From NCBI GenBank assembly GCA_030917665.1, contig JAUPUH010000064.1, positions 1 to 32,633 on the forward strand: 32,633 nucleotides of DNA, given 5' to 3'. Position numbers and translations under genes: made by a program. Origin of the DNA: Patescibacteria group bacterium (GTDB lineage: Bacteria > Patescibacteriota > Minisyncoccia > Phycocordibacterales > PALSA-1337). Under the pieces are notes generated by a model, which had not been told where the DNA came from, searched no databases, and saw only the letters and a list, made by a program, of their open reading frames with translations. This document shows positions 5,096 to 29,807 of this stretch, in pieces. How positions within the stretch are numbered: the stretch's first letter is position 1; each line of letters opens with the position of its first letter.

Positions 5096-5881
5096 CTAAC
5101 GATCCTCACGAGAACGATTATTCTTTTTGATGTCAAGTTTTTTGACAATATCCTCATGTCTTTCAAAGACTTTTCTAAGATCAGAGTCACGATCATCGTC
5201 GTTATCATTATCATCATTGTCATCTGAATTTCGTGCTTTTCTAGAATCGTCCCTTGAATCTCGATCCTCCTTATCATCACTATTATCGTCATCATCTATA
5301 TCCTGACGCACATTCATCTTTGCACTCATCATTTCAGTGGCTTGTGGTGCACTAAACGTACCCATGAGTTGTATTGATTCCTCGTTCTTTTTACTTTCCC
5401 TAACTATCTTCACCTTTGCAAGAGCTTGTTCAGCCTTATCTGCCTGCTTCTCAATTTCCTCTTTTGCAATCTTTTTTGTTCTTTCTTCGAATTCCTCCTC
5501 CCTATCAAGCCTTTCAGCTTCCTGCAACCGACGTTCAACAAGTTTTGTTTCGTACTCAGCCTGAGGTTCTGGTTCTGATGCAACAAAGACTCTTTCAACT
5601 CGCTCAGTTACTTTTGTTTTTACAGGATAAAACAAATCACCTGGCAAAGCTTGTTCTGCTGCAAAGACAACGGTACTACCGAGAGACAGTGTTATGAAAA
5701 GTGCTGCATAACCGACTTTGAATTGGTGTGACCACAAAAGCCCATACCAATTTGTAGATGATGTGGTATGTGATGGGGCACCAATATGATCAAGAAGGTG
5801 CTTTTTGATTTCAGTCTTGTGTTTCTCACCCAAACTGACTTCCTTCATTGATTTTAAAATTGTAACTATATCTTTTTTCAT
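5096..5881 (-). CDS. anti-sigma-like membrane protein, DUF5667-like extracytoplasmic domain, acidic low-complexity tail
   Basis: The gene overlaps the sigma gene by ATGA. It has a single TM helix (FKVGYAALFITLSLGSTVVFAA) followed by LPGDLFYPVKTKVTERVE, which is DUF5667-like. The C-terminus is a D/N/R-rich tail. Confidence 0.7.
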   Translation of the reverse strand: MKKDIVTILKSMKEVSLGEKHKTEIKKHLLDHIGAPSHTTSSTNWYGLLWSHQFKVGYAALFITLSLGSTVVFAAEQALPGDLFYPVKTKVTERVERVFVASEPEPQAEYETKLVERRLQEAERLDREEEFEERTKKIAKEEIEKQADKAEQALAKVKIVRESKKNEESIQLMGTFSAPQATEMMSAKMNVRQDIDDDDNSDDKEDRDSRDDSRKARNSDDNDDNDNDDDRDSDLRKVFERHEDIVKKLDIKKNNRSREDR

Positions 5882-6381
5882 GATGTTTTCATTAAATCCT
5901 TCAGTCTTTCAAGCGCCCGGTGGATTCTTACCGAGACAGTATTTTCTCTTTCATTAAGGATTTCTGCGATGTCTTTAGGTGACAAATCTTCTACAAATCT
6001 CCAAAGAATTAGGTTTTGCTCATCTTGAGAAATCTGCGGCAATAGCCTTAAAACATTCTTAAACTCGGCAGTCTGTTCGATATTCTCGCCACGAGAATCT
6101 GAGGGTTCAAAACCTGCATCTATGAGATTATCAAGTGATTCGGCCTTCTTCTTTCTATACCAATCAATAGCAAGATTTCCAGCTATACGGTAGAGCAACG
6201 CCTTAGGATTCTCAACGTTCTGACCATCTTTCATATATGTCCAGAATTGCATAAATGCTTGCTGGGTCATATCCTGAGCTCGTTCTCGATCACTTACCTT
6301 GAAAAAGCAATGCCTGAAAATTGCGTCAGCATATGCCTCATAAATATCGATAAATGTCTTCTTTGTATCATTCAACTCCAT
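5878..6381 (-). CDS. ECF-type RNA polymerase sigma-70 family factor
   Basis: 167 aa. Region 2 is present (FRHCFFKVSDRERAQDMTQQAFMQFWTY...IAGNLAIDWYRKK). Region 4 is present (DEQNLILWRFVEDLSPKDIAEILNERENTVSVRIHRALERLK). Confidence 0.85.
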   Translation of the reverse strand: MELNDTKKTFIDIYEAYADAIFRHCFFKVSDRERAQDMTQQAFMQFWTYMKDGQNVENPKALLYRIAGNLAIDWYRKKKAESLDNLIDAGFEPSDSRGENIEQTAEFKNVLRLLPQISQDEQNLILWRFVEDLSPKDIAEILNERENTVSVRIHRALERLKDLMKTS

Positions 6382-7443: not shown

Positions 7444-7914
7444 TCATCTCGTCACGGAGATGGTGGATATTTCTCCGTTACCACTTACTGTTATTCTTCC
7501 GTCACTATCCTGACTTATAGAATATCTAGTATTGTAACTTCCTGGGCTATCGAATTTTGCCAGGGTGTCAGAAGGATCGAAAGGAATAGCTGAAATATAA
7601 TTTGGGACTATACAGGTATAGACATCATACTCACCTGAATTGCTCGACATTACGGTCGGTGCACTTGGTAGAGCTGTTACACCGCCACCACACTGAAGTA
7701 TACCTTTGTTTTCTGCCATATTCTGGCCAACAGCATTCAATATCGCTGTGACATTGCTTACTCTTTGTGAATCACGTGCAAGCTTGAATTGACGAGCAGG
7801 GTTTATAGCCACCAACACGACTGCGGCCAGCACAGCTATTATTCCAATAACAACAAGGATTTCAATAAGTGTAAATCCTTTATTTCCCTTTTTTGTTTCT
7901 TTTTTTCTCAACAT
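7444..7914 (-). CDS. type IV pilin / pseudopilin (probable major subunit)
   Basis: The class III signal is KKGNKG|FTLIEILVVIGIIAVLAAVVL with Glu at +5. 156 aa. Confidence 0.85.
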   Translation of the reverse strand: MLRKKETKKGNKGFTLIEILVVIGIIAVLAAVVLVAINPARQFKLARDSQRVSNVTAILNAVGQNMAENKGILQCGGGVTALPSAPTVMSSNSGEYDVYTCIVPNYISAIPFDPSDTLAKFDSPGSYNTRYSISQDSDGRITVSGNGEISTISVTR

Positions 7915-8010
7915 TGTTTTTATAATTATATTAATAATGAATTGAGTTTACAGAAATCAAATGAAGTGTAAGTGAAGTATGTTTCAATTCCGCATGAATT
8001 TTCGAGTACA

Positions 8011-8400
8011 TCAGTCAATTGAAATTATTTCAAACCTATTGTCATATAACCTTACAACCGCTAACCTTTTCACATTTCCATTTTTAAAATTCCCGTGCGA
8101 ATAAATAATCTTTAATCCCTCATTTTCCTCTACCGAATCTATAACACAATATAAATCTGGAATCTCGTATGGTTCAGAAATCTGATAGAAGTAGTCATTT
8201 GCCAGAGCAAGAATAGCCTGATCAATGCAATTATATGCATTGTAATGGTTCATAAGTCTATATTGTTTGCGTTGTGTCATATCAAAAAAATGTCCGATTT
8301 CGATTGATTGCATAAATGTAAAAGCAAGCAAAAGACTCGAAACCGTAATCACAAGTGTCAGTGCAACGAACCCATCTTTTAATTTATAGTTAGTCTTCAT
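8011..8400 (-). CDS. minor pilin-like protein (degenerate prepilin signal)
   Basis: I take ATG 8400 as the start (MKTNYKLKDG|FVALTLVITVSSLLLAF). It lacks Glu+5, as in GspK/PilX-type minor pilins, and overlaps the upstream 56-aa ORF by 11 nt. The track start is 8424. Confidence 0.5.
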   Translation of the reverse strand: MKTNYKLKDGFVALTLVITVSSLLLAFTFMQSIEIGHFFDMTQRKQYRLMNHYNAYNCIDQAILALANDYFYQISEPYEIPDLYCVIDSVEENEGLKIIYSHGNFKNGNVKRLAVVRLYDNRFEIISID

Positions 8401-8560
8401 GATAATTCTCAATAAGCAGTTCATAATTCACTGGGGTAATAGCTGGCTGATTCATGCTGTTGTATACGAATGCAGTGGCTGATGAAAAAATACTCATCAT
8501 AAGCAAAGAAAGCAGGCTTACATATATAATTATTTCAATAAGTGTGAATCCTTTATTCAT
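8390..8560 (-). CDS. 56-aa prepilin-type N-terminal methylation-domain protein (absent from the ORF track)
   Basis: My manual translation is MNKGFTLIEIIIYVSLLSLLMMSIFSSATAFVYNSMNQPAITPVNYELLIENYHED*. It has the canonical G|FTLIE signal. The ATG overlaps the stop of 8553..9860 by 8 nt. Confidence 0.55.
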   Translation of the reverse strand: MNKGFTLIEIIIYVSLLSLLMMSIFSSATAFVYNSMNQPAITPVNYELLIENYHED

Positions 8561-9860
8561 ATAATTTTAATAGCGATACCCCCTTAGAATCCCCGGTTGC
8601 GAAATATAATGCAAATCCATCACAAGACATTCTTACAGGATTTGTGCCGAGTGGAACATCAAAAATTAGTTTAGAAAAACCAGAACTCCAAACTTGAAGT
8701 TCGTGCCCAAGTGCATGGGTTAGCAATATTGTGTACTCAGGCTGTATAAGAATTCCATACACTCCTCCAGGAATGTCTTTTGATGCATAACTTTCTGACG
8801 ATGAACTAAAAAGAAAAGTTTCGTGATTTGTAGTTACATTAAAGCCTCCCACGGTCCTCCCAAAACCAAGCGTTCCCTCAAAAAAATCAAGTACCTTCCC
8901 TGTTTGAGTCTGCCAACCTGAGGAGGAAAACTCGCTCAGAAGTACTGGGGCTCTCTTATCTTCCATATCAAGCACTCTCAGCTGATCTTCATCTGCGGTT
9001 GCAAGGTATGCTTTATTATCCTGGACATAAATATCATTAATAACAGTATTCGTCTCAAACGTACCGACAATGAATGGATCATTGATATTTGAAACATCAA
9101 TTATTGTAAACTCGGGACCGCCCCACTTTGCTGAACCTAAGTATATGAATCCTTTTGAATAAAAAATCGATGTCGCAACAGGAGCTGTGGTCGTTGGGGT
9201 TGGTAAGGTAAGTCTAAGTTGAGAAATAAGCTGCGGTGTCATCCTGTTATGTATGTCTATTATCTGCAGTTGATTGACTGAACTTGCTTGCGCAACAAAC
9301 GCATATGGTCCAGCAATCTCGAGAGCATTGATCCCAGGGCCAGTATTGAGTGAGGAGATGATTTTAAAATCTGATTGATCCTTTGTATCAATAATAAAAA
9401 AATCATGTGCTGATGAGGATGATGAATCTGCGCTTAGGTATGCAATCCCATTTCGACCTTCGATATCTGTACTTGTATTCGCTACACCAATATTGATTCC
9501 CTCAGAAAAGTATTCAATATTTTCTTCATCGAGTTTGAGTCGTGGATAACATCCGCTCCTTCCCCAAGCCGCTTCGTAATCTGAATGTGCAAGAACAAAA
9601 GGATTAATAGTAAATAATTTCGTATTGTTACCAAAACTTCCAAATCCAAGTAAGTTCTGAAAACCACCCTTAGCAAATTCGTCAGCGCCCAGAACAGAAA
9701 TCTTCAAACTCTCTAACTCTTCAAGAGACCATTCTTTCAATTTCCACATTGATGATTGGAGAGTAAAAGCTGCGAGAGTAAAAAGAATCAAGAGCGAAAA
9801 CGCCACCATGATCTCTGTGGTTAGGAATCCTTTATTTTGTGAGATGGTTTGTGATTTCAT
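8553..9860 (-). CDS. prepilin-signal protein fused to an LVIVD-repeat beta-propeller-like domain
   Basis: The N-terminus is QNKG|FLTTEIMVAFSLLILF, with Glu at +5. At least four LVIVD-like repeats follow: HDFFIIDTKDQSDFKIISSL, NQLQIIDIHNRMTPQLISQL, PEFTIIDVSNINDPFIVGTF and DQLRVLDMEDKRAPVLLSEF. Confidence 0.75.
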   Translation of the reverse strand: MKSQTISQNKGFLTTEIMVAFSLLILFTLAAFTLQSSMWKLKEWSLEELESLKISVLGADEFAKGGFQNLLGFGSFGNNTKLFTINPFVLAHSDYEAAWGRSGCYPRLKLDEENIEYFSEGINIGVANTSTDIEGRNGIAYLSADSSSSSAHDFFIIDTKDQSDFKIISSLNTGPGINALEIAGPYAFVAQASSVNQLQIIDIHNRMTPQLISQLRLTLPTPTTTAPVATSIFYSKGFIYLGSAKWGGPEFTIIDVSNINDPFIVGTFETNTVINDIYVQDNKAYLATADEDQLRVLDMEDKRAPVLLSEFSSSGWQTQTGKVLDFFEGTLGFGRTVGGFNVTTNHETFLFSSSSESYASKDIPGGVYGILIQPEYTILLTHALGHELQVWSSGFSKLIFDVPLGTNPVRMSCDGFALYFATGDSKGVSLLKLYE

Positions 9861-10914
9861 ACACAGGCAAGATTATAGATAGTGCTACGGAACCGACAAT
9901 TAATCCCATAAGTACCATTAAGGTTGGTTCGATAAGGGAGGAAAATCTCTTGAGAGAATCGTCTATATCCTGGTCAAATATCCTCGAGCAGTGTCCAAGC
10001 ATTTGAGCTAAATTTCCAGTCTTTTCGCCAAGCGCAGACATTTCAGATAGAAGCAGGGGAAATAAATCACGGCGCTTTTTTATTGATACTGAAAGAGAGA
10101 CTCCTTGAATCGTCTCTTCGTATATTTCACCAAATGCTATTTTATAAACAATATTACTTGTTGATTGTTGTGTGAAAAGCAAAAAATCAGGCACACTCTT
10201 TCCGGAAGATAAAAATATTTCTCCCATGCGACAAACAGAACTCATCAAATACGTCTTTACGGAAGAACTTAGGAGTGGTAAAGAAATAATTGTTCGATGA
10301 AATCTACTTTTCACATACACACTCTTCGCTATAAGAATATTGGTGGCTACAATTAAAACTAAAATGCAGCCCGAAACTAATAGTCCATACGACAACGAGA
10401 AGTAGTAAACACCTTGAACAATACGAGTAATCAATGGAAGCTTGATATCGAGACTACTGAGGAGAGGAATAATTTTCGGAAAAATATAGAGGACGAGAAA
10501 AAGGGTCATCGCTATTGTGGCAAAAATGATGAACATCGGATAAAGAAGTGAAGTAATGAGCTTCTTTTTCATTTCATTCCTTTTCTCAAGATACGAGTAT
10601 GCTTGAAGCAACGTTTCTGAAAGACTCCCAGTTGACTCACCATTCTGAATAAGACTAACGAGCAAACCATTGAACCTTATCCCGGAATTCCTAATACTCT
10701 TACTTAGTGATATTCCTTGCTGGATGCTTTTAAGTAGCTCGTCATAAATATGCTTTCTTGGCACACAATTTTCCATATTCTGCATCATAGACAACGCTTC
10801 TGACATCGATATTCCAGATTTGAGAAGTAGAGAAAGCCTATGTGCAAAATGCATTTGGTCAGATAGACTGAATGCTGCAATTTTAATTTTTGTATGTCTC
10901 TTACTCATGAACAA
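9832..10914 (-). CDS. pilC: type IV pilus / T2SS platform protein (GspF/PilC family)
   Basis: 360 aa polytopic membrane protein with a duplicated T2SSF-like architecture. It overlaps pilB by 14 nt and the downstream gene by 29 nt. Confidence 0.85.
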   Translation of the reverse strand: MFMSKRHTKIKIAAFSLSDQMHFAHRLSLLLKSGISMSEALSMMQNMENCVPRKHIYDELLKSIQQGISLSKSIRNSGIRFNGLLVSLIQNGESTGSLSETLLQAYSYLEKRNEMKKKLITSLLYPMFIIFATIAMTLFLVLYIFPKIIPLLSSLDIKLPLITRIVQGVYYFSLSYGLLVSGCILVLIVATNILIAKSVYVKSRFHRTIISLPLLSSSVKTYLMSSVCRMGEIFLSSGKSVPDFLLFTQQSTSNIVYKIAFGEIYEETIQGVSLSVSIKKRRDLFPLLLSEMSALGEKTGNLAQMLGHCSRIFDQDIDDSLKRFSSLIEPTLMVLMGLIVGSVALSIILPVYEITNHLTK

Positions 10915-12031
10915 TTCTTAGTATCTCTTCTTGGGTAGTAATTCCCTTCTCGACCTTTTCCATTCCATCCTCATACATACTTCTCATACCCTTACTTCGC
11001 ACATATCTACTAATTTCTGCATGAGAAGTGCGCGCCATAATATACTTTCTCAACTCTTCATCAACAATGAGGGTTTCTGCAATCACCGTTCGACCTTTAA
11101 ATCCAAGTGTCCCACACGCTCCGCAACCAGCCCCTTTGCACTGCTGACATACCTTCCTCACAAGTCGTTGGGCGATGACAAGTGAGAGCGTTGAAGCCAC
11201 TAGATATGGATCGACGCCCATATCAATAAGTCGAGGAATCGATCCGAGGGCCGAATTTGTATGAAGTGTTGATAATAAGAGATGTCCTGTAAGAGAAATA
11301 TTTGTTGCAATCTGAGCGGTTTCTGTATCCCGAATCTCCCCAACCATAATAATGTCTGGGTCTTGCCGCACAATTGATCTCAAACCATTTGCAAAAGTAA
11401 TTCCGTGTCTCGAATGAATTTGTATTTGGCGAATTCCTGGCATCGCATACTCAATAGGGTCTTCAAGTGTAATAATTGAATTTTTTTCTGACGACAAGGC
11501 AGAGATAAGTGTATAGAGCGTAGAAGTCTTTCCCGAGCCAGTCGGGCCCGTAACCAAGATCATTCCTTGATGATACGAAAGACACTGTACGATTCTACTA
11601 ACATCATGATCAGAAAAACCAAGCTTACCTAGTGTTGGTATATCACTATCATTCCTTAGTAGTCGCATAACAACATTTTCCCCGTGGTGTGTGGGAATAA
11701 TTGATACGCGTATATCACAATCACAAATACCCTGAGCAAACCTGAACCTGCCATCTTGTGGCACAAAATGTATATCTGTGCGCAGTCCAGAAAGCACCTT
11801 GATTCTTGCAATAAGCTCCTCATGCAAATCATTTGAAAGTGTGTCGGCGTACATAAGCATTCCATCAACACGAAATCGTATCGTCACACCCTCCTGCGCT
11901 GGGTCAATATGCACATCAGAAGCACCGCGATGAAAGCCATGGGTTATAAGCGAGTCGACAAGTTCAACTATAGAACGAATATCGTGAAGCGTGAGATCAT
12001 TATTCGGAATTGCATATGTTTTTTCTGACAT
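10901..12031 (-). CDS. pilB: type IV pilus / T2SS assembly ATPase (GspE/PilB family), short form
   Basis: The motifs present are Walker A GPTGSGKTST, Asp box EDPIEY, Walker B DPDIIMVGEIRD, His box GHLLLSTLHTN and the tetracysteine CQQCKGAGCGAC. At 376 aa it lacks the long N-terminal domain. Confidence 0.9.
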   Translation of the reverse strand: MSEKTYAIPNNDLTLHDIRSIVELVDSLITHGFHRGASDVHIDPAQEGVTIRFRVDGMLMYADTLSNDLHEELIARIKVLSGLRTDIHFVPQDGRFRFAQGICDCDIRVSIIPTHHGENVVMRLLRNDSDIPTLGKLGFSDHDVSRIVQCLSYHQGMILVTGPTGSGKTSTLYTLISALSSEKNSIITLEDPIEYAMPGIRQIQIHSRHGITFANGLRSIVRQDPDIIMVGEIRDTETAQIATNISLTGHLLLSTLHTNSALGSIPRLIDMGVDPYLVASTLSLVIAQRLVRKVCQQCKGAGCGACGTLGFKGRTVIAETLIVDEELRKYIMARTSHAEISRYVRSKGMRSMYEDGMEKVEKGITTQEEILRIVHE

Positions 12032-15285: not shown

Positions 15286-15318
15286 GAAAAAGCCCCGCAA
15301 CCATCGCGGGGCTTTTTG
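15286..15318. terminator. bidirectional intrinsic terminator (typA and the convergent 15323..16546 gene)
   Basis: Stem agccccgc / gcggggct with a 7-nt loop, an A-run upstream and a T-run downstream. Confidence 0.85.
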
Positions 15319-15322: not shown

Positions 15323-16546
15323 CTACTTCAGACCTCTGTACAAGCGCCTGATGGTCTCGACTGCATGGATGACTGCTTCTTGTTTATCAGCAATCGCCTT
15401 TGCGGTATGATACCTGCCGTACCGAGCCATGTGAGCTCCACGTCCGATAAGTCGTCCAATCCTTTGGGGACTGATCTTCAAATCGACGTCGAGTAAATAG
15501 GCTGCGATGTAACGTGCTCGAGCAAACCGTGTGAGCGAACTTGAACTACTCAATTGTTTGGGGGTCAATCCGAACACCTGACAAACTATGAACACCAGCG
15601 TTTCTTCGTGGGTGTCCTGTATGATAGGCGTGAATTCCTTGAATTGAAGCTCATAGGGACGGTCCTTTGCAGCTTGTTTCCAAGTTTCTTTTTCGCGAGC
15701 AAACAGTGAGCCGATCTCGACTTGTTCTTCCACGCTCGGAAGCAATGGTGAAATGGGAATTGTTTCTCTAAATTTTCTCTCAAAAGCCTGGATGCGCTTC
15801 AAGAGTCTTTGGAGATGCTCTGGATTTGTTATTGGAGATTTCGCAACCTCCAACCTGTGCCAGATGTAATCAATGGCTTTCTGGGGAGTCGCCCAATTGA
15901 CTCGCCATTTCTCGGCAAGCTGCCGAAATGAAAGCTTTGTGCGGCCGTTGAGACCGAAAAAGCCTTCGAAGAACTCCATGTCCCTCTGCCGATTCGACAG
16001 CGGAATGACCCGAAGTAATCCGAGCATAACAGCAATCGGATCAGCAAGTTGTGAGAGCAATGATCGTGCGACCAAAAACTCTTGTGGTGACAAGGGCGGC
16101 TGGCTTTCTTCCCTGTCCCGCATCCTCTTCTTCGCATCATCAACGACAGTTTTCACTGCCACCGTGAAGGCTTGGAGATTTGACCGGACTTGAGAGTTCT
16201 GCACCTTTTCTAAGGCACGGGCCATTTTTGAGACCATATCCTCGTTAGCTCGTACCCGTTGCCGGAAACGAGCCAATACCTTTCGAACACGACGCGAAAA
16301 GTACGCAAAGAAAGATCGTCCTCGATTTTCATAGGGAAACAAATTGCTTCCAGTATGTAATTCATGAACAAACTCATCAACCAAAATTGCTCTGTGTATC
16401 GGCAATGCCTTCTCACAGTTTGGAATGATTTTTTGAGCGACAATGCTCCTGATCACCTCTGGTTCCACAACGCCCGGGAAAGCGTTGAGGAAAATCAATC
16501 TTCCGTGCAGGGCGATTGTCTCGCCTACAATTCGATTAGTTTCCAT
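15323..16546 (-). CDS. sigma-70-like protein with C-terminal DnaA-domain-IV-like HTH (GC-rich block 3)
   Basis: The start is ATG 16546, with SD AGGAGG (16552-16557) 5 nt upstream. The region-2-like segment is LVDEFVHELHTGSNLFPYENRGRSFFAYFSRRVRKVLARF. The region-4-like segment is LSNRQRDMEFFEGFFGLNGRTKLSFRQLAEKWRVNWATPQKAIDYIWHRL. The C-terminal segment VCQVFGLTPKQLSSSSSLTRFARARYIAAYLLDVDLKISPQRIGRLIGRG resembles Bac_DnaA_C. Confidence 0.75.
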   Translation of the reverse strand: METNRIVGETIALHGRLIFLNAFPGVVEPEVIRSIVAQKIIPNCEKALPIHRAILVDEFVHELHTGSNLFPYENRGRSFFAYFSRRVRKVLARFRQRVRANEDMVSKMARALEKVQNSQVRSNLQAFTVAVKTVVDDAKKRMRDREESQPPLSPQEFLVARSLLSQLADPIAVMLGLLRVIPLSNRQRDMEFFEGFFGLNGRTKLSFRQLAEKWRVNWATPQKAIDYIWHRLEVAKSPITNPEHLQRLLKRIQAFERKFRETIPISPLLPSVEEQVEIGSLFAREKETWKQAAKDRPYELQFKEFTPIIQDTHEETLVFIVCQVFGLTPKQLSSSSSLTRFARARYIAAYLLDVDLKISPQRIGRLIGRGAHMARYGRYHTAKAIADKQEAVIHAVETIRRLYRGLK

Positions 16547-16610
16547 CGTAACCTCCTGGGTTAGTTTGTTTTCGGTTGCACTCTTTAAACAACAAAGAGC
16601 ATTCACTTTG

Positions 16611-16640
16611 ATGGTATCACCGTCCTATAGCTAGGGTCAA
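16611..16640 (-). promoter_or_regulatory. promoter of the sigma-like gene
   Basis: The minus strand reads TTGACC (16640-16635), N18 with TGa, TACCAT (16616-16611). The 11-nt palindrome gtcaatttgac (16636-16646) overlaps the -35 element. Confidence 0.45.
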
Positions 16641-16661
16641 TTTGACATTATTCCCAATGCG

Positions 16662-17084
16662 TTATGATAAATTTACGACTTTATTACGTGGTCTCATAAA
16701 CAACCAGGTACCGAAGATAAAACCGGCAAACTGCACTAACATTTGTTTTATACCGCCAAACATAAAAATTTCAGAGATAAACGGGATGTAGATAGGAACA
16801 AAGTTTAAAAGAAAAAACACCATAATTAAAATACTGCTACGCAACCATACAGCATGAGTCTGTTCCTTATTCAAATTACTCCACAGAGTAATAATCCCCG
16901 AAGACAGGGATGCTCCAATAAAACAAATAAGGTAAGCGTGGGCGAAAAAAATAATATTCACAAAAACAGAGGGTGGATTTATATCACCCACACCCATCGC
17001 CACAAATCCAACAAAAAAATTCCAAGCTGAAATTATTACTGAAAAAATTATTAAATGAAGCACCACATACAGCCACTTATTCAT
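16662..17084 (-). CDS. small integral membrane protein (about 4 TM helices)
   Basis: The protein is hydrophobic throughout. I prefer ATG 17084 (MNKWLYVV...) because TATACT (17097-17092) lies 7 nt upstream. The track start is TTG 17108. I recognise no family. Confidence 0.6.
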   Translation of the reverse strand: MNKWLYVVLHLIIFSVIISAWNFFVGFVAMGVGDINPPSVFVNIIFFAHAYLICFIGASLSSGIITLWSNLNKEQTHAVWLRSSILIMVFFLLNFVPIYIPFISEIFMFGGIKQMLVQFAGFIFGTWLFMRPRNKVVNLS

Positions 17085-17123
17085 AGAATAAAGTATAGCA
17101 TGACTCAATCCCCGTGTAAGTAA

Positions 17124-18095
17124 TCACCAATGTGTTTTGATGTACTCAGAAGCTTCACTCATGGAATATGGCTGAGTTGAGTTCCCTACACGCACATAGA
17201 AATCCTCTTTTTTATCTCCATTATGTAAATATGCTGGCTTATGCCCTTCCCGAACTATAACAAGACAAATATCCTTTCCGTCTATAGTTTCGAAACTCGT
17301 ACTTACGTATTTTGTGAATGTCATGCCGATCATTGTCTTTATAAGCATAGTGATATGATTCTCAAAACCATCACGATTTTTCTTGGGCAAAGTCTTATAG
17401 TCATTTTCAAGTCCTACAACCCTTCCATCATCGTTAACACCTATAATAAGCGTTCCACCGTCTGCATTGAGAAAGCCGACAATCGTCTTTGTAATCATCT
17501 TTTCAAGCTCTTTGCTGATCTCACCCTTTTTCGCATCATAGCGCATTGTCTCTTTAAACTCGACAAAAAGTCCTTCACCCTTTTCTATGAGAATCTTTGG
17601 ATCGCGTGTAAGAAGACGTCCAGAACTACTATGCGCTAATTGCTTAATGACGTGCACATGCTCGTCGTAGTTTGAAACATTCTTTATCTTAGTCACCCGA
17701 CCATTACTATGCTCTAGAATGATGGTTGCATGATACATCATACGACTTATCGGACTTTGATATATCTCAACTGAAGCAACATCAGAGAGACTGACTGATT
17801 TCTTTCGGCGAAATATGAGACCTGATTTTCTAACAATCTCCTTTTCATGAATCTCGAAGCGTGCGAAATACCAGTCCAGAAACAGAATTGTTATGTACAC
17901 GAGCTGAAAACCTGAAAATGCAATCACTTCAAATATATCGAAACGGATAAATGCATGAAAATTAAGACTTTTATAAAGAAGCTCATAATTACCGAGGAAA
18001 GATATCGCGAAGAAAAACAGCGAAGCGATTATTTCCATTGTTAAGACGTTTCTCACGAAGACAAGCGGGCCTTCCTTTATGATGATTCGTCTCAT
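17124..18095 (-). CDS. membrane-anchored bacterial PH (bPH_2/YdbT-like) domain fused to AlbA_2 (Schlafen-type) domain
   Basis: An N-terminal TM hairpin is followed by EIHEKEIVRKSGLIFRRKKSVSLSDVASVEIYQSPISRMMYHATIILE, which is bPH-like. The C-terminal half, LFVEFKETMRYD...ITKTIVGFLNADGGTLIIGVNDDGRVVGLEND...FYVRVGNSTQ, matches the AlbA_2 pattern. Confidence 0.8.
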   Translation of the reverse strand: MRRIIIKEGPLVFVRNVLTMEIIASLFFFAISFLGNYELLYKSLNFHAFIRFDIFEVIAFSGFQLVYITILFLDWYFARFEIHEKEIVRKSGLIFRRKKSVSLSDVASVEIYQSPISRMMYHATIILEHSNGRVTKIKNVSNYDEHVHVIKQLAHSSSGRLLTRDPKILIEKGEGLFVEFKETMRYDAKKGEISKELEKMITKTIVGFLNADGGTLIIGVNDDGRVVGLENDYKTLPKKNRDGFENHITMLIKTMIGMTFTKYVSTSFETIDGKDICLVIVREGHKPAYLHNGDKKEDFYVRVGNSTQPYSMSEASEYIKTHW

Positions 18096-22250: not shown

Positions 22251-22811
22251 ATGACAACATTGATCAATACTCCTTACGGAATCTTCGAACCTGAAGACGC
22301 ACTCGCGGAGTTGTATGCAGCAAAAAGCTGGACCGCAGCCCAACTCGTCGCCGTGCTTGATGAGTTCTGGGCAAAGGCCCGAGATTGCGCGCGTCGCGCG
22401 AGTCTCTACATCGTCAATATGACGAATCTTGATTACCCGAAGAGAGTCATCTCGCGGGCGAAAGCTCTCATGCGGCTGTTTTCAAGGCCACAGACGAAAA
22501 GCCCTCGGCAGCGCTATGCGCATATCGAGAAGATGCTTCAGGAAGTTACTGCTCAAGCCGGCAAGCCTGTTGCGCTCAAACTCAGCTTCACCGGTGTGGT
22601 GAAAAAAGCTGACCTCGAAACTCTCCTCAACAACCATTGCGTCAGTCTTAGCTCGAAAGCAGAGCGGACTCGGCTTTTCCGGTTGGCCTCGATTAACCCT
22701 AACTTCGACGGCAAGGAAATCTCGGTCAAGGTCTCTCTCACGAACGCTTACGAAGCTTGGTCCCTTACCCACGCCATGCTCAAGCTCGTTCACGATGTCA
22801 AAGTTGTTTAA
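22251..22811 (+). CDS. hypothetical protein (GC-rich block 4)
   Basis: 186-aa ORF with a consensus promoter upstream and a hairpin terminator downstream. I recognise no family. Confidence 0.6.
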   Translation: MTTLINTPYGIFEPEDALAELYAAKSWTAAQLVAVLDEFWAKARDCARRASLYIVNMTNLDYPKRVISRAKALMRLFSRPQTKSPRQRYAHIEKMLQEVTAQAGKPVALKLSFTGVVKKADLETLLNNHCVSLSSKAERTRLFRLASINPNFDGKEISVKVSLTNAYEAWSLTHAMLKLVHDVKVV

Positions 22812-22842
22812 CCCAACCCCGATGGAGTATTAAAATTTCACG

Positions 22843-22877
22843 AAGTCCTGTTGCGCACGCGGCAGGACTTTTCTTTT
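22843..22877 (+). terminator. intrinsic terminator
   Basis: Stem aagtcctg / caggactt followed by ttcttttg. Confidence 0.7.
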
Positions 22878-22878
22878 G

Positions 22879-22912
22879 TAAAAGAAAGTGCCTTTGGTTT
22901 CCCAAAGGCACT
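22879..22912 (-). terminator. intrinsic terminator of the 637-aa gene
   Basis: Perfect 11-bp stem agtgcctttgg / ccaaaggcact with loop tttc. The T-run on the minus strand is the reverse complement of aaaagaaa. Confidence 0.8.
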
Positions 22913-22921
22913 CAGTGAATG

Positions 22922-24835
22922 CTAACAAATTAATTCCAATTCCTTTGCTTTCCTGCCTACCCGTTGGACAGCGACTTTAAAGTCGTCGTCTTCTCGGAAA
23001 CGCTTGGAAGCAAGGTTGTAAATGCTGGTAAACTCGTCCTTGTCGGTCTTGCTGATGATTTTCAGAAAGATCGACTTGGCGTCCGACCAGACAAGTTCGT
23101 TGTGGATAACCAAGCAGAGCATCCAATGTGCTTTCTTGATTTTAATGTGAAGTTCGTCGTCATCATTGGGGAAGTTTGGGACGTCAGCAGGGCTGATATC
23201 ACACTCCTCACAAACAAGTTCAACAACCTTCTGTTCTGCGGGATCAAGCTTTGCTGAAAGCGTAGGGAGTTTGGGGGGAGTGATTTTTGCTGGTAGCCCA
23301 AGTTCGACGGACTCTCCCGTCGCACTGAGCAGCAACTCATCTTCCCTCTTTTCACCCTTGATGACCTTTACAAGCTCATCAACAACCAACATAAACCTGT
23401 AATCCGCGGCGTATGCGGCGCGTGCTGTGCGAAGAATGCCGTGGAAGTCATAAATCGACTTCCTTCCAAGTGCCTTCAAGAAAATCTCTCCGGCAAAAGG
23501 ATGTTTGAGCTTTTCAGCAAAGATCAGTGCGAGCATCCGAGACGCTCGCAAAACCTTTGGCCCGAAGCCGCTCCCGTATGTCGAAGGCTTTGGTAAGTCT
23601 CCAGGCGTGAGGTCGTTGACCTTGCACACCAAGCCGATAATCCTCACCGTCTCTGGCTTTGCGAATTCGGTCTCACTGCTGACGAACGGTCTGCGTACGA
23701 CCGGTGGCCTAACAGCTTTCGGTGGAGCATACGAGAACACCCGTTCAATCGTATGACCCATGCCCAATTCCTTAATCTTCAGTCTTATCCGGTCTTTCCC
23801 TTTGAACTTACGGGCTTCATTCCAGACTTCGACTTGTTTTTCTTCTTGTATGCGAGCCAGTTCCCCAGCCTGCACGATGTAGAGCATGTCCTTGATCGGC
23901 GTAGGCGGAGCAAGCAGCTTCTGCAACTCGGGGTGAAGGTACTTGATACGTAGAATGCCATAGACATTCAACATGTCGAGTCCGCATGATTCAGCAAGGC
24001 TCTGAGCATTCGCCTTTTGTGCTATAAGCCACTGTGCAAACACGGCGCTCATTTTCATCGCACTGTAATCCAGAACCTCACCCTCTGCACAATACTTCCT
24101 CACGAAAGCAGCGAACAGTGGATTTGATTGTGCCCTTAACGCCAACTCATGTTTCATTGGTTCGTCAGGGTTTACCTCCACTGGCTCATGGAGTTCAACT
24201 GGACTTGAAGGAGCAGCCGGCAAAGATGGCGGTAGTTCTGGCTGCTTGAAGTATTCCCGAACGTATGCAGAATCAGGGAGGCCCGACAGAGACGATTTCT
24301 TCATGCTCGGAACCGACAGCGACGCTGGGGCCGACGGTTCGGCAAGATCAAGTCTTACCACCACCTCTTTTTCTGCCGGAGGTGGCGTGAGAAGTTCCTT
24401 GAGCTTTTGGGGATGAAGCACTTCGCATTCGAACTCCCAATCAGCAATCGTGTCGCCAATACCCATTATGCCAATCTTTTTGCCATCTCTCGACTGAATG
24501 AGCATCGTACGACCTGTTTCGATTTCTCGACACATGCCTTGAAATACTCGCATCAAGCGAAATGGTCCGCAGTTCTGTCCGTCCGGGACGCGGTGTTCAA
24601 GCAAAAATACAAAAGTACTGCTTGCAACATCACCGAGCTCGGGTGTAGACGCCTGAGTGTACTTGGGCGCGTTTGAGACCGCACCAATTTTGGCAAAGCC
24701 GAATTCTTGAAGGAACTCGACCGCTTTTGAATCCTTTTTGTCACTGCTAGCTTTCGCATCACATGTGACCCTCACACTGAGAATCCTCAAAACCTTTTGT
24801 GAGGCTCTTGAGGGTGCTCCATTTTTATTGTTCAT
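22922..24835 (-). CDS. large DNA-binding-type protein: unknown N-domain, Pro/Ser linker, ParB-like HTH, two DnaA-domain-IV-like modules (GC-rich block 4)
   Basis: 637 aa. The ParB-HTH-like segment is QSLAESCGLDMLNVYGILRIKYLHPELQKLL. The first DnaA_C-like module is VRIIGLVCKVNDLTPGDL...VLRASRMLALIFAEKLKHPFAGEIFLKALGRKS. The second is VVELVCEECDISPADV...IKKAHWMLCLVIHNEL. Confidence 0.75.
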   Translation of the reverse strand: MNNKNGAPSRASQKVLRILSVRVTCDAKASSDKKDSKAVEFLQEFGFAKIGAVSNAPKYTQASTPELGDVASSTFVFLLEHRVPDGQNCGPFRLMRVFQGMCREIETGRTMLIQSRDGKKIGIMGIGDTIADWEFECEVLHPQKLKELLTPPPAEKEVVVRLDLAEPSAPASLSVPSMKKSSLSGLPDSAYVREYFKQPELPPSLPAAPSSPVELHEPVEVNPDEPMKHELALRAQSNPLFAAFVRKYCAEGEVLDYSAMKMSAVFAQWLIAQKANAQSLAESCGLDMLNVYGILRIKYLHPELQKLLAPPTPIKDMLYIVQAGELARIQEEKQVEVWNEARKFKGKDRIRLKIKELGMGHTIERVFSYAPPKAVRPPVVRRPFVSSETEFAKPETVRIIGLVCKVNDLTPGDLPKPSTYGSGFGPKVLRASRMLALIFAEKLKHPFAGEIFLKALGRKSIYDFHGILRTARAAYAADYRFMLVVDELVKVIKGEKREDELLLSATGESVELGLPAKITPPKLPTLSAKLDPAEQKVVELVCEECDISPADVPNFPNDDDELHIKIKKAHWMLCLVIHNELVWSDAKSIFLKIISKTDKDEFTSIYNLASKRFREDDDFKVAVQRVGRKAKELELIC

Positions 24836-24881
24836 GAACTTACCTTTCTACCTCTCAAGAGGTGTTGGTTTGACTAGCAAA

Positions 24882-24910
24882 AAATTATCACAGTTTTGGT
24901 GGTCTGACAA
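24882..24910 (-). promoter_or_regulatory. promoter of the 637-aa gene
   Basis: The minus strand reads TTGTCA (24910-24905), N17 ending in TGa, TAATTT (24887-24882). Confidence 0.5.
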
Positions 24911-24926
24911 TGATTATGCCAATGTA

Positions 24927-24955
24927 TTGACATTTACTTTAATATGTTGTAATTT
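24927..24955 (+). promoter_or_regulatory. divergent promoter for 24988..25314
   Basis: TTGACA (24927-24932), N17, TAATTT (24950-24955). SD AGGAG (24977-24981) lies 6 nt before the ATG. Confidence 0.55.
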
Positions 24956-24987
24956 ATGGATAAACAACAGTTCACCAGGAGAAAAAT

Positions 24988-25314
24988 ATGACTCAAGGAC
25001 TAATTAGTATTGTGCAGGACGGTAAGGTCGTCATGAAAATCATCACAGGAGCAGATGGTCAGTGTGCCAGCAAAGTCGCAAAGGCGATCAAGAAGCTGGG
25101 GCACATTCCAGAACCAGAAGAAGCTTACGACCTTGCTCTGAGACATGGGTTCGGCCACGAGAGTTCACTTGTGGTAATGAACGGTAAGGAAACATTTCAC
25201 AAAACTGATACAGAAGGGTTCGAAAAGGGTTATCGTCAGACTTTTGACAACCCTGAATTCAATCCACGCTGGGATCACGGAACCGCTGATTACACTCAAA
25301 TCGTGCACTTGTGA
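24988..25314 (+). CDS. small hypothetical protein
   Basis: 108 aa with a good promoter and SD. I recognise no family. Confidence 0.6.
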   Translation: MTQGLISIVQDGKVVMKIITGADGQCASKVAKAIKKLGHIPEPEEAYDLALRHGFGHESSLVVMNGKETFHKTDTEGFEKGYRQTFDNPEFNPRWDHGTADYTQIVHL

Positions 25315-25377
25315 TTTCACCTGACACGACTCACCGCTCACTGAAGCCGCTGGCTTTAGTCGGCGGTTTTCATTTAC

Positions 25378-25824
25378 CTAAAATTTCCTACTATCGTATG
25401 CCCAATGGAGCAATGCCTGGCGCTGACGAGGACGGCAATGTACATCCCCTGCCCTGCAATTATTCCGTATTTGCACAATATGTCTTCGCATCGCTTTCCA
25501 TCTTTTTATCTGTCGAGCATCTTCATCTGGAATTCTTCGGCCAAGGTAGTAACGACAATACCACTCAAACCAACCTCGTGGATCGTATTTCGATATCCAA
25601 CCTTTTGCTTTCCATACCGAGAGCGGTTGGCTCGCATTCACACCAAAGTAATTTAGATTCTTGTCGTGCTTTTCTGAATTTAATTTTGCATTTTCGAACC
25701 AGTCACGCGGATATTCTAAAGGCTTGTCAGACATGTAGTGTCCACCAAAGACTCCAAGCTCAAGCATTTCCTTCGGAGTGAGTTCGGGTTTGAATTCTGG
25801 ATCAAAGTTATCGGGGAATTTCAT
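25378..25824 (-). CDS. conserved hypothetical protein with Trp/Arg-rich motif
   Basis: I take the start at ATG 25824 (MKFPDNF...), with TATACT (25836-25831) 6 nt upstream. The motif KGWISKYDPRGWFEWYCRYYLGRRIPDEDARQIKRW looks like a widely conserved uncharacterised family that I cannot name. The antisense ORF 25311..25781 is judged to be a shadow. Confidence 0.65.
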   Translation of the reverse strand: MKFPDNFDPEFKPELTPKEMLELGVFGGHYMSDKPLEYPRDWFENAKLNSEKHDKNLNYFGVNASQPLSVWKAKGWISKYDPRGWFEWYCRYYLGRRIPDEDARQIKRWKAMRRHIVQIRNNCRAGDVHCRPRQRQALLHWAYDSRKF

Positions 25825-25954
25825 ATAAATAGTATACCGCACATGTAGCCTGTGGATTATTTTGACTTTATCATAAAAAGATGTTACTCTCCTTGTCGGG
25901 TCCTATCTCACCACTGACGGTGTTAAGGGCATGTACACAAACGGAAATTGAAAA

Positions 25955-27070
25955 ATGAAAATGAAACTGACGGTAATGGTCGCCACACTCGTGGCGATTT
26001 CTAGTCTCGGCCTGCAAGCGCAGGAACTCACCAAGGAACAGTATTATGGACTCGAGCTCTTGGCTCAAGACGCTCGTGATGCCCTTGAGGAAAGTGAACG
26101 CAAGGCTGCTGAAGCTTACGCCAAACTCAGTCCGGAAGAACGGCTCGTACGGCAAATTCTCCTGGAAAAACAGAGGGAAGAGTACGAAAAAATCCGCGCG
26201 ATCATAACACCGCCAGAAATCACACCAGAGATGGTTGCGAAAGCGCAGCAGAACCGGCGTCTCAATAAAATCACAGTAACCCCAATCGTCGCGAAAATTG
26301 CTTCCATCTCAGAAGGCGGCGGGATTCAGGAGTTATCCTTCGGTGGATGCGGGGCTGATTCCAATCAGTTCTACAATGTCCCACTCTTCGATGCGGCAAC
26401 GCCTCCGCAGTGGCAAACTGAAAATGCACCAACCACCTACTACCCCTGGAGTTACTATGTCAACACGATTGACTTCACGGGAAGAAAGGCGATTCGCTCA
26501 GGTGCATTCTCAGCGAACTTCTCCAGTTCACCGCTCTACTACACCCTGACGAACAATTGGGATACGTACGGCGTACCTCTGAACCACCGTCTGACATTCA
26601 AATATACGTTTACGAAATCAGCTACGGCGGATGTCTTCAGGTTGCAAATCGGCTCGCTTCTCACGAACCTGCCGGTATCGTCAGGATGGACACAGGTGTC
26701 ATTCGTCATCCCACCATTCCCACGGACACAGACGAATGCTCAAGTGACCTTTACGGTCTTCAAGCAATCAACACAATCGTCCAGTCCGAGAGCAGACCTC
26801 TATGCGGTGCAATGGTGCACCGAAGTCCGCCCGGACAATAGGGCGATTAAGGCCCAAGCGGTCGGGAGTTCAGTGGCCGTCAGTTGGTCGCATGAGTCAT
26901 GTCCGACGAACTATTGGAGTCTCATGTACTCTCCGATCATGAACACAAACGAAGTGTTCTGGAGTACGAACATCGGCACGAGTCCCATCGTGTATTCGAA
27001 TACAACAGCGGTCGTGACCTTCCCTGCAACCGGCAGCGAACGTTACTATCGGCTCAAGCGAAACTTCTAA
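25955..27070 (+). CDS. secreted protein, helical N-region plus beta-rich (jelly-roll/Ig-like) C-region
   Basis: The signal peptide is MKMKLTVMVATLVAISSLGLQAQ. The beta-rich C-terminal half ends in ERYYRLKRNF. A terminator follows. Confidence 0.65.
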   Translation: MKMKLTVMVATLVAISSLGLQAQELTKEQYYGLELLAQDARDALEESERKAAEAYAKLSPEERLVRQILLEKQREEYEKIRAIITPPEITPEMVAKAQQNRRLNKITVTPIVAKIASISEGGGIQELSFGGCGADSNQFYNVPLFDAATPPQWQTENAPTTYYPWSYYVNTIDFTGRKAIRSGAFSANFSSSPLYYTLTNNWDTYGVPLNHRLTFKYTFTKSATADVFRLQIGSLLTNLPVSSGWTQVSFVIPPFPRTQTNAQVTFTVFKQSTQSSSPRADLYAVQWCTEVRPDNRAIKAQAVGSSVAVSWSHESCPTNYWSLMYSPIMNTNEVFWSTNIGTSPIVYSNTTAVVTFPATGSERYYRLKRNF

Positions 27071-27089: not shown

Positions 27090-27123
27090 CTCCCGCAGGC
27101 CACAAGCCCGCGGGAGTATTTTT
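27090..27123 (+). terminator. intrinsic terminator
   Basis: Stem ctcccgcagg / cccgcgggag (one mismatch) with a 7-nt loop, followed by tattttta. Confidence 0.7.
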
Positions 27124-27649
27124 ATTTCTTTTCTTGAAACCCCATCTTCCCTTTTGGCTTCGGTGGTGGTTCAAGCAGATGCTTTACGACTGCATGTACG
27201 CTTTTCAGAAGATCTCCATGCTCTTTTTGTTTCTTTTCAACTTCACCAATCCTGATTTCCAAATCTTTGTTTGATAGAACTAATTCTTTAACCTTTATAA
27301 ATACGCGAATAATCAGAATATTCATCTGCACTGCTATCTCACTTCTTAAGACTGATGAAAGCATTGCGACGCCATGTTCAGTGAATGCGTAGGGTAAATA
27401 TTTGATATTACGGTGTACGTGTGAACCGGTTCCAATTTGGAACCGGTTACTGTACTCCTCGACAGTTAGTTGAAACATAAAATCCACAGGAAACCTCTCT
27501 AGATTTCTCTTAACAGCTTTATTGAGATTTTTCGTCTCAACTCTATATAACTCCGCCAAATCAGAATCGAGCATAACTCTGTAGCCACGGATAACATAGA
27601 TCCTTTGTTTAATGATTTCTTCCGGATCAATTTTTATCTTTTCACTCAT
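27122..27649 (-). CDS. ORF6N domain (KilA-N-related DNA-binding) protein
   Basis: IRGYRVMLDSDLAELYRVETKNLNKAVKRNLERFPVDFMFQLTVEE is the typical ORF6N signature, followed by a C-terminal coiled coil. The promoter is TTGCTT (27687-27682), N17, TATTAT (27664-27659), with the ATG 9 nt downstream. Confidence 0.85.
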   Translation of the reverse strand: MSEKIKIDPEEIIKQRIYVIRGYRVMLDSDLAELYRVETKNLNKAVKRNLERFPVDFMFQLTVEEYSNRFQIGTGSHVHRNIKYLPYAFTEHGVAMLSSVLRSEIAVQMNILIIRVFIKVKELVLSNKDLEIRIGEVEKKQKEHGDLLKSVHAVVKHLLEPPPKPKGKMGFQEKK

Positions 27650-27745
27650 GATGTTTCAATAATAAAATCGGCTCGCTTATCAAGCAACTGAAAAATTCAT
27701 TAAAATTTTAAACTTCTGTGGAAAAGTGGCGGCAAATTTACCAAA

Positions 27746-29033: not shown

Positions 29034-29085
29034 GGGATAATCAAATTTCTCTTGCTTTTATGTTTCATGGGTGTATTATCCTGGC

Positions 29086-29511: not shown

Positions 29512-29683
29512 AGTTACTCGACGAATGCTGTACAGTTTTTTAAATGTTTTTCTTTTTCGATTTTTTTTGATATACTTAAGCAATAATTTAATAGTCTCTA
29601 GGATGTCACTAATTTCAATTTCTCCTTTTTCAAAATTACTTCTTACAACACAAATTTTGCTTGTTGTAATCTTTTCTTTTAAC

Positions 29684-29730
29684 ATCGTATCAGATAGAAT
29701 GTTCTCAAAGAACATTCTATCTGATACGAT
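29684..29730. repeat. perfect 22-bp inverted repeat (palindrome)
   Basis: atcgtatcagatagaatgttct (29684-29705), loop caa, agaacattctatctgatacgat (29709-29730). Confidence 0.9.
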
Positions 29731-29759
29731 TCGCAGGTAAAATAAAGTTATACTAGATT

Positions 29760-29796: not shown

Positions 29797-29807
29797 TTAA
29801 ATATTTT

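Follow-up and report, generated by a model that had tools for sequence, protein, structure and literature searches.

A degenerate sigma-70-like protein of Patescibacteria with a C-terminal helix-turn-helix of the DnaA domain IV type

Introduction

Sigma factors define promoter recognition in bacteria, and the set of domains that they contain is regarded as well charted. A gene on the minus strand of a 32,633 nucleotide (nt) stretch of DNA from an uncultivated Patescibacteria group bacterium (GenBank accession number JAUPUH010000064.1, assembly GCA_030917665.1; the whole stretch is here called the window) raises the question of whether a sigma-70-like protein can be joined to the origin-binding type of helix-turn-helix (HTH) found in domain IV of DnaA, and of what such a protein would do. 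The gene, at positions 15323–16546, had been read in a first-pass annotation, made from the DNA letters alone, as encoding a sigma-70-like protein fused to a DnaA domain IV-like HTH, an arrangement not known from any characterised sigma factor. In line with this, the literature searched yielded no report of a sigma factor joined to DnaA domain IV. A recurrent fusion of sigma-70 with the DNA-binding domain of DnaA would be a new means of steering RNA polymerase (RNAP), and the fusion occurs in the candidate phyla radiation (CPR), a very large and hardly studied group whose genomes are tiny and hold few regulators. What is new here is a degenerate member of the sigma family whose DNA-binding extension is without precedent and whose sigma part becomes visible only by family profile.

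Domain architecture of the protein

The longest reading of the open reading frame (ORF) in the window extends from the first GTG (15323–16606, minus strand). The ATG at 16546 was taken as the real start because AGGAGG lies just upstream of it and because the resulting product of 407 amino acids (aa) matches the deposited protein P0001 and equals in length P0002, the ortholog from locus L001 (Hainich groundwater), which is 86% identical to P0001. The deposited NCBI annotation of P0001 lists a Bac_DnaA_C domain only and does not mention sigma. From the profile, alignment and structure comparisons given below, the protein is very probably sigma-70-derived and made up of a sigma2-like domain, a remnant of region 3, a sigma4-like HTH, a helical linker and a DnaA domain IV-type HTH, in this order (Table 1). 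The homology and the order of all domains are established at the level of sequence comparison. The three segments that the first-pass annotation had assigned to sigma region 2, sigma region 4 and DnaA domain IV are all present, and their likeness goes beyond chance.

Table 1 Features of the gene, its transcription unit and its product, and the full-length relatives. Coordinates refer to the window.
Feature	Position or accession	Strand	Evidence or comment
Complete coding sequence (CDS), 407 aa, P0001	15323..16546	-	Stop codon TAG at 15323–15325; same length and domain order in 13 or more relatives
Shine-Dalgarno sequence AGGAGG	16552..16557	-	5 nt before ATG
Predicted sigma-70-type promoter, TTGACC-18 nt-TACCAT with upstream TG	16611..16640	-	Hexamers invariant and spacer variable across 4 loci
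Leader inverted repeat, GCTCTTTG-N5-TAAAGAGTGC	16578..16600	-	About 10 nt past the -10; candidate operator or 5' mRNA hairpin
Predicted bidirectional intrinsic terminator, common to convergent typA	15287..15317		dG -21.7 and -21.0 kcal/mol on the two strands
N-terminal family-specific motif, residues 1–28, predicted beta-hairpin	16463..16546	-	AlphaFold2 models; G15 and F23 invariant in A6
Sigma2-like domain, residues 29–114, regions 2.1–2.4	16205..16462	-	PDB profile matches, hhalign to A2, Foldseek
Hypervariable recombining segment within the sigma2-like domain	16180..16500	-	Identity trough, dS, mosaic allele L098
Inter-domain linker, residues 115–153, region 3.0/3.2 remnant, region 3.1 absent	16088..16204	-	Alignments, low pLDDT
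Sigma4-like domain, residues 154–240, region 4.1–4.2 HTH	15827..16087	-	PDB profile, hhalign, Foldseek; conservation 0.57
Helical linker, residues 241–312	15611..15826	-	Common to full sigma-DnaA_C fusions (L...L.RI..LE..vGE); AlphaFold2
DnaA domain IV-type HTH, residues 313–407	15326..15610	-	Pfam, PDB profile, Foldseek
Patescibacteria sigma-70 + Bac_DnaA_C fusions	P0017, P0018, P0019, P0022, P0023, P0034, P0037		418–1134 aa

The C-terminal domain was identified by several methods. The Pfam model Bac_DnaA_C (PF08299) scored 30.7 bits with the whole protein and, when only the C-terminal 109 aa were used, 34.2 bits (cut-off 31.5), and the NCBIfam DnaA models matched only over their last ~70 positions, with 22–31 bits against cut-offs of 344–410. 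A profile built from the alignment of 15 relatives (A1) retrieved the DNA-binding domain of Mycobacterium tuberculosis DnaA from the PDB (3pvp, E = 1.7e-9). The same structure was found by Foldseek with the C-terminal domain of the AlphaFold2 model (template modelling (TM) score 0.86–0.89, root mean square deviation (rmsd) 1.6 Å, probability 1.0), together with 1j1v (TM score 0.83). The proposal that the ~90 C-terminal residues correspond to DnaA domain IV is thus well founded. P0001 had no match to PF00308 (Bac_DnaA, the AAA+ domain III) and does not qualify as a full DnaA.

In the E. coli residue numbering of DnaA and of sigma70, the residues R345, P360 and R369 stand for DnaA R399, P423 and R432 and are kept, and D433, H434 and T435 are replaced by G370, A371 and H372. 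The position of the DHTTV motif reads G370-A371-H372-M373-A374; the replacement of this motif by AHMARY, as first noticed, is seen in the alignment as GAHMA followed by RY. DnaA boxes (TTATCCACA, at most one mismatch) occur 13 times in the window against 8.7 expected, which is not significant. As the DHT residues are replaced and the boxes are not enriched in the window, classic DnaA-box targeting is unlikely, and the suggestion that the protein addresses DnaA-box-like sites was rejected.

The sigma part could not be detected with the single sequence. No Pfam or NCBIfam sigma model matched P0001 at E ≤ 10, the curated thresholds of Sigma70_r2, Sigma70_r4 and TIGR02937 not being reached, and P0004 gave no match to a sigma model either. 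Models of extracytoplasmic function (ECF) sigma factors did not match P0001. BLASTP of P0001 against regions 2–4 of E. coli RpoD gave a non-significant E value of 0.63, and neither a PHROGs scan nor a phmmer search of the PDB with the single sequence returned a sigma match. Taken alone, these negatives would wrongly have led to rejection of the sigma finding. The profile check proposed by the first-pass annotation therefore came out in two ways, Bac_DnaA_C being recognised directly and the sigma regions only with the family profile.

Word-indexed searches for homologs gave almost nothing, and 1.8 billion representative proteins had to be scanned exhaustively with HMMER; the scan yielded 37 relatives, of which ~13 are full-length, with ~400 aa and 30–40% identity. 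At least 13 relatives share both the length and the domain order of P0001. Pfam Sigma70_r2 was touched by two of the 15 family members (best E value 6.7e-5). Besides DnaA, the A1 profile matched dozens of sigma factors in the PDB, namely RpoS (E = 4.9e-8) as well as SigA, SigB and RpoD, and its best matches formed two colinear stretches, one over regions 2.2–2.4 and the other over region 4.2, the latter with 11–15 bits for RpoS, SigB and SigA. When the profile was restricted to residues 1–240, with the DnaA part removed (A6), all 54 PDB matches at E < 0.01 were sigma factors (RpoS, 2.6e-8), and some single alignments extended from region 2 through to region 4. Hence the region 2 and region 4 segments, undetectable by single sequence, are clear and colinear with the family profile. 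An affinity to ECF sigma factors was considered and rejected, as hhalign of the family against the window's own ECF sigma gave a probability of 0.1.

The AlphaFold2 model obtained with A1 had a mean predicted local distance difference test (pLDDT) score of 81 and was all-helical except for the small N-terminal beta-hairpin, a motif for which no canonical sigma counterpart was identified. Low confidence was confined to residues 100–150, and the sigma2-like domain, with helices at 29–46, 49–73 and 79–114, had pLDDT values of 80–90. In Foldseek the full-length model gave weak sigma matches (8cyf_B for the sigma4-like domain, probability 0.90) because the DnaA domain dominates and the domain arrangement is arbitrary, so that a separate model of residues 1–240 was needed. 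With this model the top 50 matches were all sigma chains (sigmaA, sigma70, sigma32, sigmaE, sigmaH, sigmaL, sigmaB and AlgU; probability up to 0.95), the alignments covered sigma2 to sigma4, and the isolated sigma4 of SigL (3hug_A) reached a probability of 0.98. The low TM scores of these matches are attributed to the arbitrary relative position of the two sigma domains in the model. Structure comparison, as the first-pass annotation had recommended, thus returned the DNA-binding domain of DnaA for the C-terminus and nothing other than sigma chains for the N-terminal 240 aa.

In the linker at residues 115–153, other members of the family retain 'vrvPk', which resembles IRlPvH, and 'f.rLD', which resembles SLD. 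The sigma4-like domain is the best-conserved block of the family, with the consensus DPIxVMLGxLRVIPLSxRQR...FE..YGLNGR...W...P..I...W.KL..A.SPI.

Full-length sigma-DnaA_C fusions in Patescibacteria

Weaker relatives from the HMMER scan (Table 1) carry Sigma70_r1_2, r2, r3 and r4 above the Pfam gathering cut-offs, followed by one to four Bac_DnaA_C domains, and in NCBIfam they score like RpoD/RpoS (1e-60 to 1e-70). These full fusions were found in at least seven divergent clusters with intact sigma motifs, in addition to the degenerate family of 400-aa proteins. They sit among chromosomal housekeeping genes, and P0023 adjoins parB. The phmmer matches to P0017–P0037 cover query residues 145–407, and hhalign of A1 against the profile of the full fusions (A2) gave a probability of 99.87% (E = 1e-31) over 324 colinear columns, running in order through region 2, the region 3.0/3.2 remnant, region 4, the common helical linker and DnaA_C. 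The 418-aa protein P0037, with a clear region 2, a degenerate region 4 and DnaA_C, scores above the NCBIfam sigma-70 superfamily cut-off and is, by its domain content, an intermediate that bridges the full fusions and the family of the window gene.

From the A1–A2 alignment and this intermediate it follows that the combination of sigma with DnaA domain IV is real and recurrent and that the window gene belongs to a shortened, diverged branch. Judged by these alignments, it has branched off, in shortened form and evolving fast, from a so far uncharacterised class of sigma factors in Patescibacteria that bear one to four C-terminal DnaA_C domains.

Shorter DnaA_C paralogs are located directly beside family or fusion genes (L004, 6970–7932, plus strand; L010, 111–782, minus strand). 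Other metagenomic proteins contain up to eight DnaA_C domains together with an IS200-type transposase, MarR or Sigma70_r4_2 (P0029, P0030). It seems that these lineages employ DnaA_C for DNA binding in a general way.

Transcription unit, promoter and leader

The window gene is monocistronic and forms its own transcription unit. A promoter, an AGGAGG Shine-Dalgarno sequence and a bidirectional terminator, all named in the first-pass annotation, were located, as were the flanking genes it had given, typA (BipA_C) and an AT-rich membrane gene, a hydrophobic ORF of 34% GC. The GC content of the gene was measured as 48.2% against a window mean of 42%, and the earlier figure of a block of ~53% GC had to be corrected. 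The terminator hairpin is bordered by A and T runs. In a phylogenetic footprint of four loci the -35 and the extended -10 of the promoter are invariant and the spacer varies, and the same layout recurs upstream of other family genes. By these elements, the promoter is of the housekeeping type.

Downstream of the -10 lies an inverted repeat, GCTCTTTGTTGTTTAAAGAGTGC when written out, which is conserved in L001, L003, L007 and L098, and in L008 with a one-base bulge. The 122 nt ahead of the start codon are 85–87% identical between the window and L007 despite saturated neutral sites; another intergenic region is equally conserved, so that conservation of the leader is notable but not unique. Other family genes have repeats of their own clade 2–15 nt past the -10: TTGCGCA-N5-TGCGCAA in front of each of the two tandem paralogs of L004 (5433–5449 and 6888–6904), GGATCG-N3-CGATCC in L005 (7952–7966) and AATGCA-N5-TGCATT in L012 (778–794). 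The otherwise unalignable L008 (5937–5953) has the same CTCTTT/AAAG(G)AG half-sites as the clade of the window gene. A perfect repeat of at least 6 base pairs (bp) is present at that position in five of seven loci, for a chance of ~0.1 per locus (binomial P ~3e-4). The palindrome is unique in the window. A regulon search with it gave 98 metagenome matches, nearly all chance occurrences within unrelated genes, and the extended leader was found only at the locus of the window gene. A special RNA structure of the leader was rejected (fold z-score -0.3). The repeat may be an operator for autoregulation that evolves together with the protein, or a hairpin at the 5' end of the mRNA.

Genomic context and evolution of the gene

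The gene occupies a conserved chromosomal slot, in the order truB, bPH/AlbA_2, the gene itself and typA, in other Patescibacteria metagenome-assembled genomes (MAGs), and in the assemblies holding L003 and L007 (the latter JBBTYL01 H41-bin140_1) the gene order is kept over ~13 kb. Its neighbours in the window include typA, an adk-like gene, type IV pilus ATPase and platform genes, truB, hisS and an exonuclease with the RNase_H fold. Between the window and L007, the neighbouring proteins are 72–99% identical (typA 99.2%) and the protein studied here 32–34%; nucleotide similarity ends at the Shine-Dalgarno sequence and returns past the terminator. Synonymous sites are saturated (proportion of synonymous differences, pS, 0.44–0.85), and the nonsynonymous divergence (dN) is 0.76 for this gene against 0.006–0.18 for its neighbours. 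It is by far the fastest-evolving gene of its neighbourhood. Replacement of the whole CDS as an allele or cassette, considered in view of the conserved flanks and sharp boundaries, was rejected as unnecessary, since with saturated synonymous sites and a dN of 0.76 fast evolution in situ suffices.

Comparison with the closer locus L001 showed 90–99% DNA identity except for a trough of 54–70% at ~16180–16500 (codons ~15–120). The synonymous divergence (dS) was 1.07 in the sigma2-like segment and 0.20 elsewhere in the gene, and omega was ~0.17 in the N-terminal and ~0.10 in the C-terminal part; both parts of the gene are under purifying selection. The allele L098 has a window-type sequence over its N-terminal 150 codons, and its remaining 257 codons are protein-identical to L001, placing a breakpoint near codon 150. 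At the level of these alignments, the mosaic demonstrates intragenic recombination, with the sigma2-like module existing as two deeply diverged haplotypes and behaving as a separate cassette. A diversity-generating retroelement was rejected as the source of the hypervariable segment: the window holds no template repeat and no reverse transcriptase gene, and the changes are mostly transitions without A bias.

A mobile-element or defence origin of the gene was likewise rejected, phage, plasmid, IMG/VR and PADLOC searches having returned no match to it. The idea of a regulator left by a degraded mobile element, put forward in the first-pass annotation, did not survive this result and the conserved slot in several MAGs.

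Next to the gene, a ~470-bp insertion (16654–17146) contains the hydrophobic ORF mentioned above (16662–17108, minus strand), which encodes 148 aa with multiple transmembrane segments and has no Pfam match. None of L003, L007, L001 and the 97%-identical allele L098 has the insertion, which is bounded by a degenerate duplicate of ~20 nt from the 3' end of the bPH_2/AlbA_2 gene. The latter (17124–18095, minus strand) encodes a membrane-anchored protein with bPH_2 and Schlafen/AlbA_2 domains and is the conserved upstream neighbour in L003 and L007; its weak match to a PADLOC pAgo model (E = 2e-4) reflects the AlbA_2 domain only.

Elsewhere in the window, and in contrast to the degenerate protein, an ECF sigma factor of the ordinary kind with 167 aa (5878–6381; Sigma70_r2 and r4_2), readily found by Pfam, overlaps the start of a gene for a DUF5667 protein, which is likely to be its anti-sigma partner (5096–6381 for the pair, minus strand). 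A type IV pilus-like cluster (7444–12031, minus strand), syntenic in L007, encodes an N_methyl prepilin, an LVIVD-repeat protein, a T2SSF platform protein and a T2SSE ATPase. The most GC-rich part of the window (22251–27070, up to 52% GC) holds ORFs of 186, 637, 156 and 371 aa without a Pfam match, and at 27122–28996 (minus strand) an ORF6N-domain protein adjoins a Y-family (ImpB/DinB-like) DNA polymerase. A low-GC block (29071–32495, ~30–35% GC) with a Zeta-toxin kinase, a GmrSD_N+HNH endonuclease and, at the edge, a fragment of an EcoRI-type adenine methyltransferase is probably a defence/restriction island.

Possible function

Our preferred interpretation, held tentatively and at a little short of an even chance, is that the protein is a transcription factor of sigma descent which works in association with RNAP and reads DNA with two HTH heads. 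Action at RNAP is suggested by the conservation of region 4.1/4.2, the linker and the DnaA-type HTH, which are the best-conserved parts. In sigma factors region 4.1/4.2 grips the beta-flap and reads DNA. The protein would dock on RNAP mainly through its sigma4-like domain, placed on the beta-flap, and through the linker, whose region 3.0/3.2-like motifs are kept in the family as a factor threading RNAP would need. The choice of DNA would lie with the two HTH heads, the sigma4-like one and the DnaA-IV-like one, the latter presumably reading a site other than the DnaA box, and the variable sigma2-like module might tune a lineage-specific contact. The gene itself would be transcribed from its housekeeping-type promoter and would probably be autoregulated through the inverted repeat overlapping the transcript start. 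The role would be that of a specialised initiation or regulatory factor.

Several results weigh against this interpretation. The curated sigma models fail on the protein itself, the inter-domain arrangement in the AlphaFold2 model is not confident (predicted TM score 0.42–0.45), and the DNA searched yielded neither target promoters nor another copy of the palindrome. The sigma70 residues F419, G424, F427, Y430, R436 and R441 are kept as F70, G76, F79, Y82, R88 and R93, and Y425, W433, W434, Q437 and T440 have become R77, R85, R86, K89 and A92; loss of the melting tryptophans of sigma, as of the box-reading residues of DnaA, is established by these alignments. The QEGN core-binding motif of region 2.2 is not conserved within the family, and region 1.2 and the region 3.1 HTH are absent. 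Within the family, conservation falls from the sigma4-like domain (0.57) to DnaA_C (0.52) and the sigma2-like domain (0.44), while in the full fusions it falls from region 2 (0.66) to region 4 (0.63) and then to region 3 (0.51) and DnaA_C (0.50), so that among the folded domains the sigma2-like one ranks last in the family and its counterpart first in the full fusions. The occurrence of the sigma2-like domain as deeply diverged, recombining haplotypes is unexpected for a surface that grips the invariant beta-prime clamp helices. The idea of a sigma factor thus stands as to homology and architecture and is weakened as to a working sigma, given the degenerate sigma parts and a sigma2-like domain that is both the least conserved and the most recombining.

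The inverted conservation, the loss of canonical region 2.2/2.3 residues and the hypervariable, recombining sigma2 module would suit a free-standing repressor or activator with two HTHs and no binding to the RNAP core, probably an autorepressor. Such a protein, the main rival and in our view a possible but not a likely solution, would perhaps form a dimer through the long helical linker and bind the palindrome at its own transcript start and a few further operators, its sigma2-like part being in decay or re-purposed for binding a partner. The clade-specific perfect repeat at +3 to +25, with one half-site shared by the two L004 paralogs and another shared by the window clade and L008, agrees with it, as does a promoter of the housekeeping type rather than a self-recognised alternative one. 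Yet the sigma2-like domain still shows purifying selection (omega ~0.17) and folds confidently (pLDDT 80–90), the region 3.2-like linker and the flap-binding region 4.1 are retained, and the one-base bulge of the L008 repeat would be tolerated better by an RNA hairpin than by a DNA operator. A fully functional alternative sigma, with sigma2 melting a divergent -10, sigma4 reading a -35-like element, DnaA-IV adding a third contact upstream and a small regulon, is unlikely. Descent from clear sigma-DnaA_C fusions with intact sigma motifs speaks for it, ECF sigma factors function without the W433/W434 dyad and without region 3, and rapid change of sigma2 could track shifts in -10 specificity. However, the core-binding motif of region 2.2 is not conserved in the family, there is no likeness to the ECF sigma of the window, the searches yielded no candidate regulon, and the housekeeping-type promoter does not point to positive autoregulation, which alternative sigmas typically show.

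A regulator of replication or partition, binding DnaA-box-like sites at or near oriC through DnaA-IV, has the fold of DnaA domain IV, the kept basic-loop arginine and the position of P0023 beside parB in its favour; it is nevertheless very improbable, as the signature residues that read the box are replaced, the window shows neither box enrichment nor a dnaA/dnaN/oriC context, and the other contexts are unrelated housekeeping genes. Least credible is a leftover of a degraded mobile element, or two genes joined by a frameshift artefact. The GC content of the gene is slightly above the window mean (48% against 42%), the small membrane-ORF insertion adjoins it, and a defence and restriction-modification island lies at the far end of the window; against this, several MAGs have the gene in the same slot from bPH/AlbA_2 to typA, its flanks being conserved, the phage, plasmid, IMG/VR and PADLOC searches were negative, and the insertion is missing from the 97%-identical allele and is hence independent of the gene. 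As to the frameshift, which the first-pass annotation had itself raised, the frame is single and intact, with the same length in 13 or more relatives, and the full fusions share the domain order.

Returning to an RNAP-associated factor, a broader proposal can be made, which we consider doubtful at present: Patescibacteria would possess a sigma class fused to origin-type DnaA-IV modules, in some lineages as arrays and possibly including the principal sigma, and the window gene would be a derived branch acting on RNAP, its sigma4 and DnaA-IV heads being retained and its sigma2 part serving as a recombining, population-polymorphic specificity cassette. If so, promoter choice would use a third reading head beyond the -10 and the -35. 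A fast gene in a conserved neighbourhood, with a recombining sigma2-like cassette, offers a tractable case of a core transcription component being re-purposed.

Comparison with known systems

Regions 2.1–2.4 and 4.1–4.2 of the protein are homologous to and colinear with those of group 1–3 sigma-70 factors (RpoD/SigA, RpoS, SigB), from which it differs in lacking regions 1.2 and 3.1, in not conserving QEGN, in the added DnaA-IV and in escaping the standard models. With DnaA domain IV (PF08299; 3pvp, 1j1v) it shares the fold (TM score 0.83–0.89, rmsd 1.6–1.7 Å), the basic-loop arginine, the proline of the HTH and the Gly-Arg ahead of the recognition helix; unlike DnaA, it has no domains I–III (no AAA+) and reads G-A-H-M-A for DHTTV, so that it would not be expected to have the classic box specificity.

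ECF (group 4) sigma factors with C-terminal extensions, such as ECF41 and ECF42, consist of a minimal sigma2-linker-sigma4 unit and an extra C-terminal domain that modulates activity. The succession of sigma2, linker, sigma4 and an additional C-terminal domain is the same here, whereas the protein is nearest to RpoD/RpoS and without ECF sequence affinity, its extension is a DNA-binding HTH rather than a sensory or SnoaL/TPR-type domain, and no anti-sigma gene adjoins it. Phage T4 gp55/gp33 and Bacillus subtilis SigO-RsoA offer precedents of highly diverged sigma2- or sigma4-like modules that act on RNAP and are barely detected by standard models; they differ in being separate small polypeptides without a DnaA-type domain.

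The closest likeness in domain order (sigma2, sigma3 where present, sigma4, helical linker, DnaA_C) is with the full-length sigma-DnaA_C fusions, with which the signatures 'YGL(N/D)G', 'W..L..A' and 'L...L.RI..LE..vGE' are held in common. In contrast to the fusions, which often have two to four DnaA_C domains, the protein has a single one, lacks regions 1.2 and 3.1, has degenerate regions 2 and 4, and belongs to a family in which the order of conservation across the domains is inverted.

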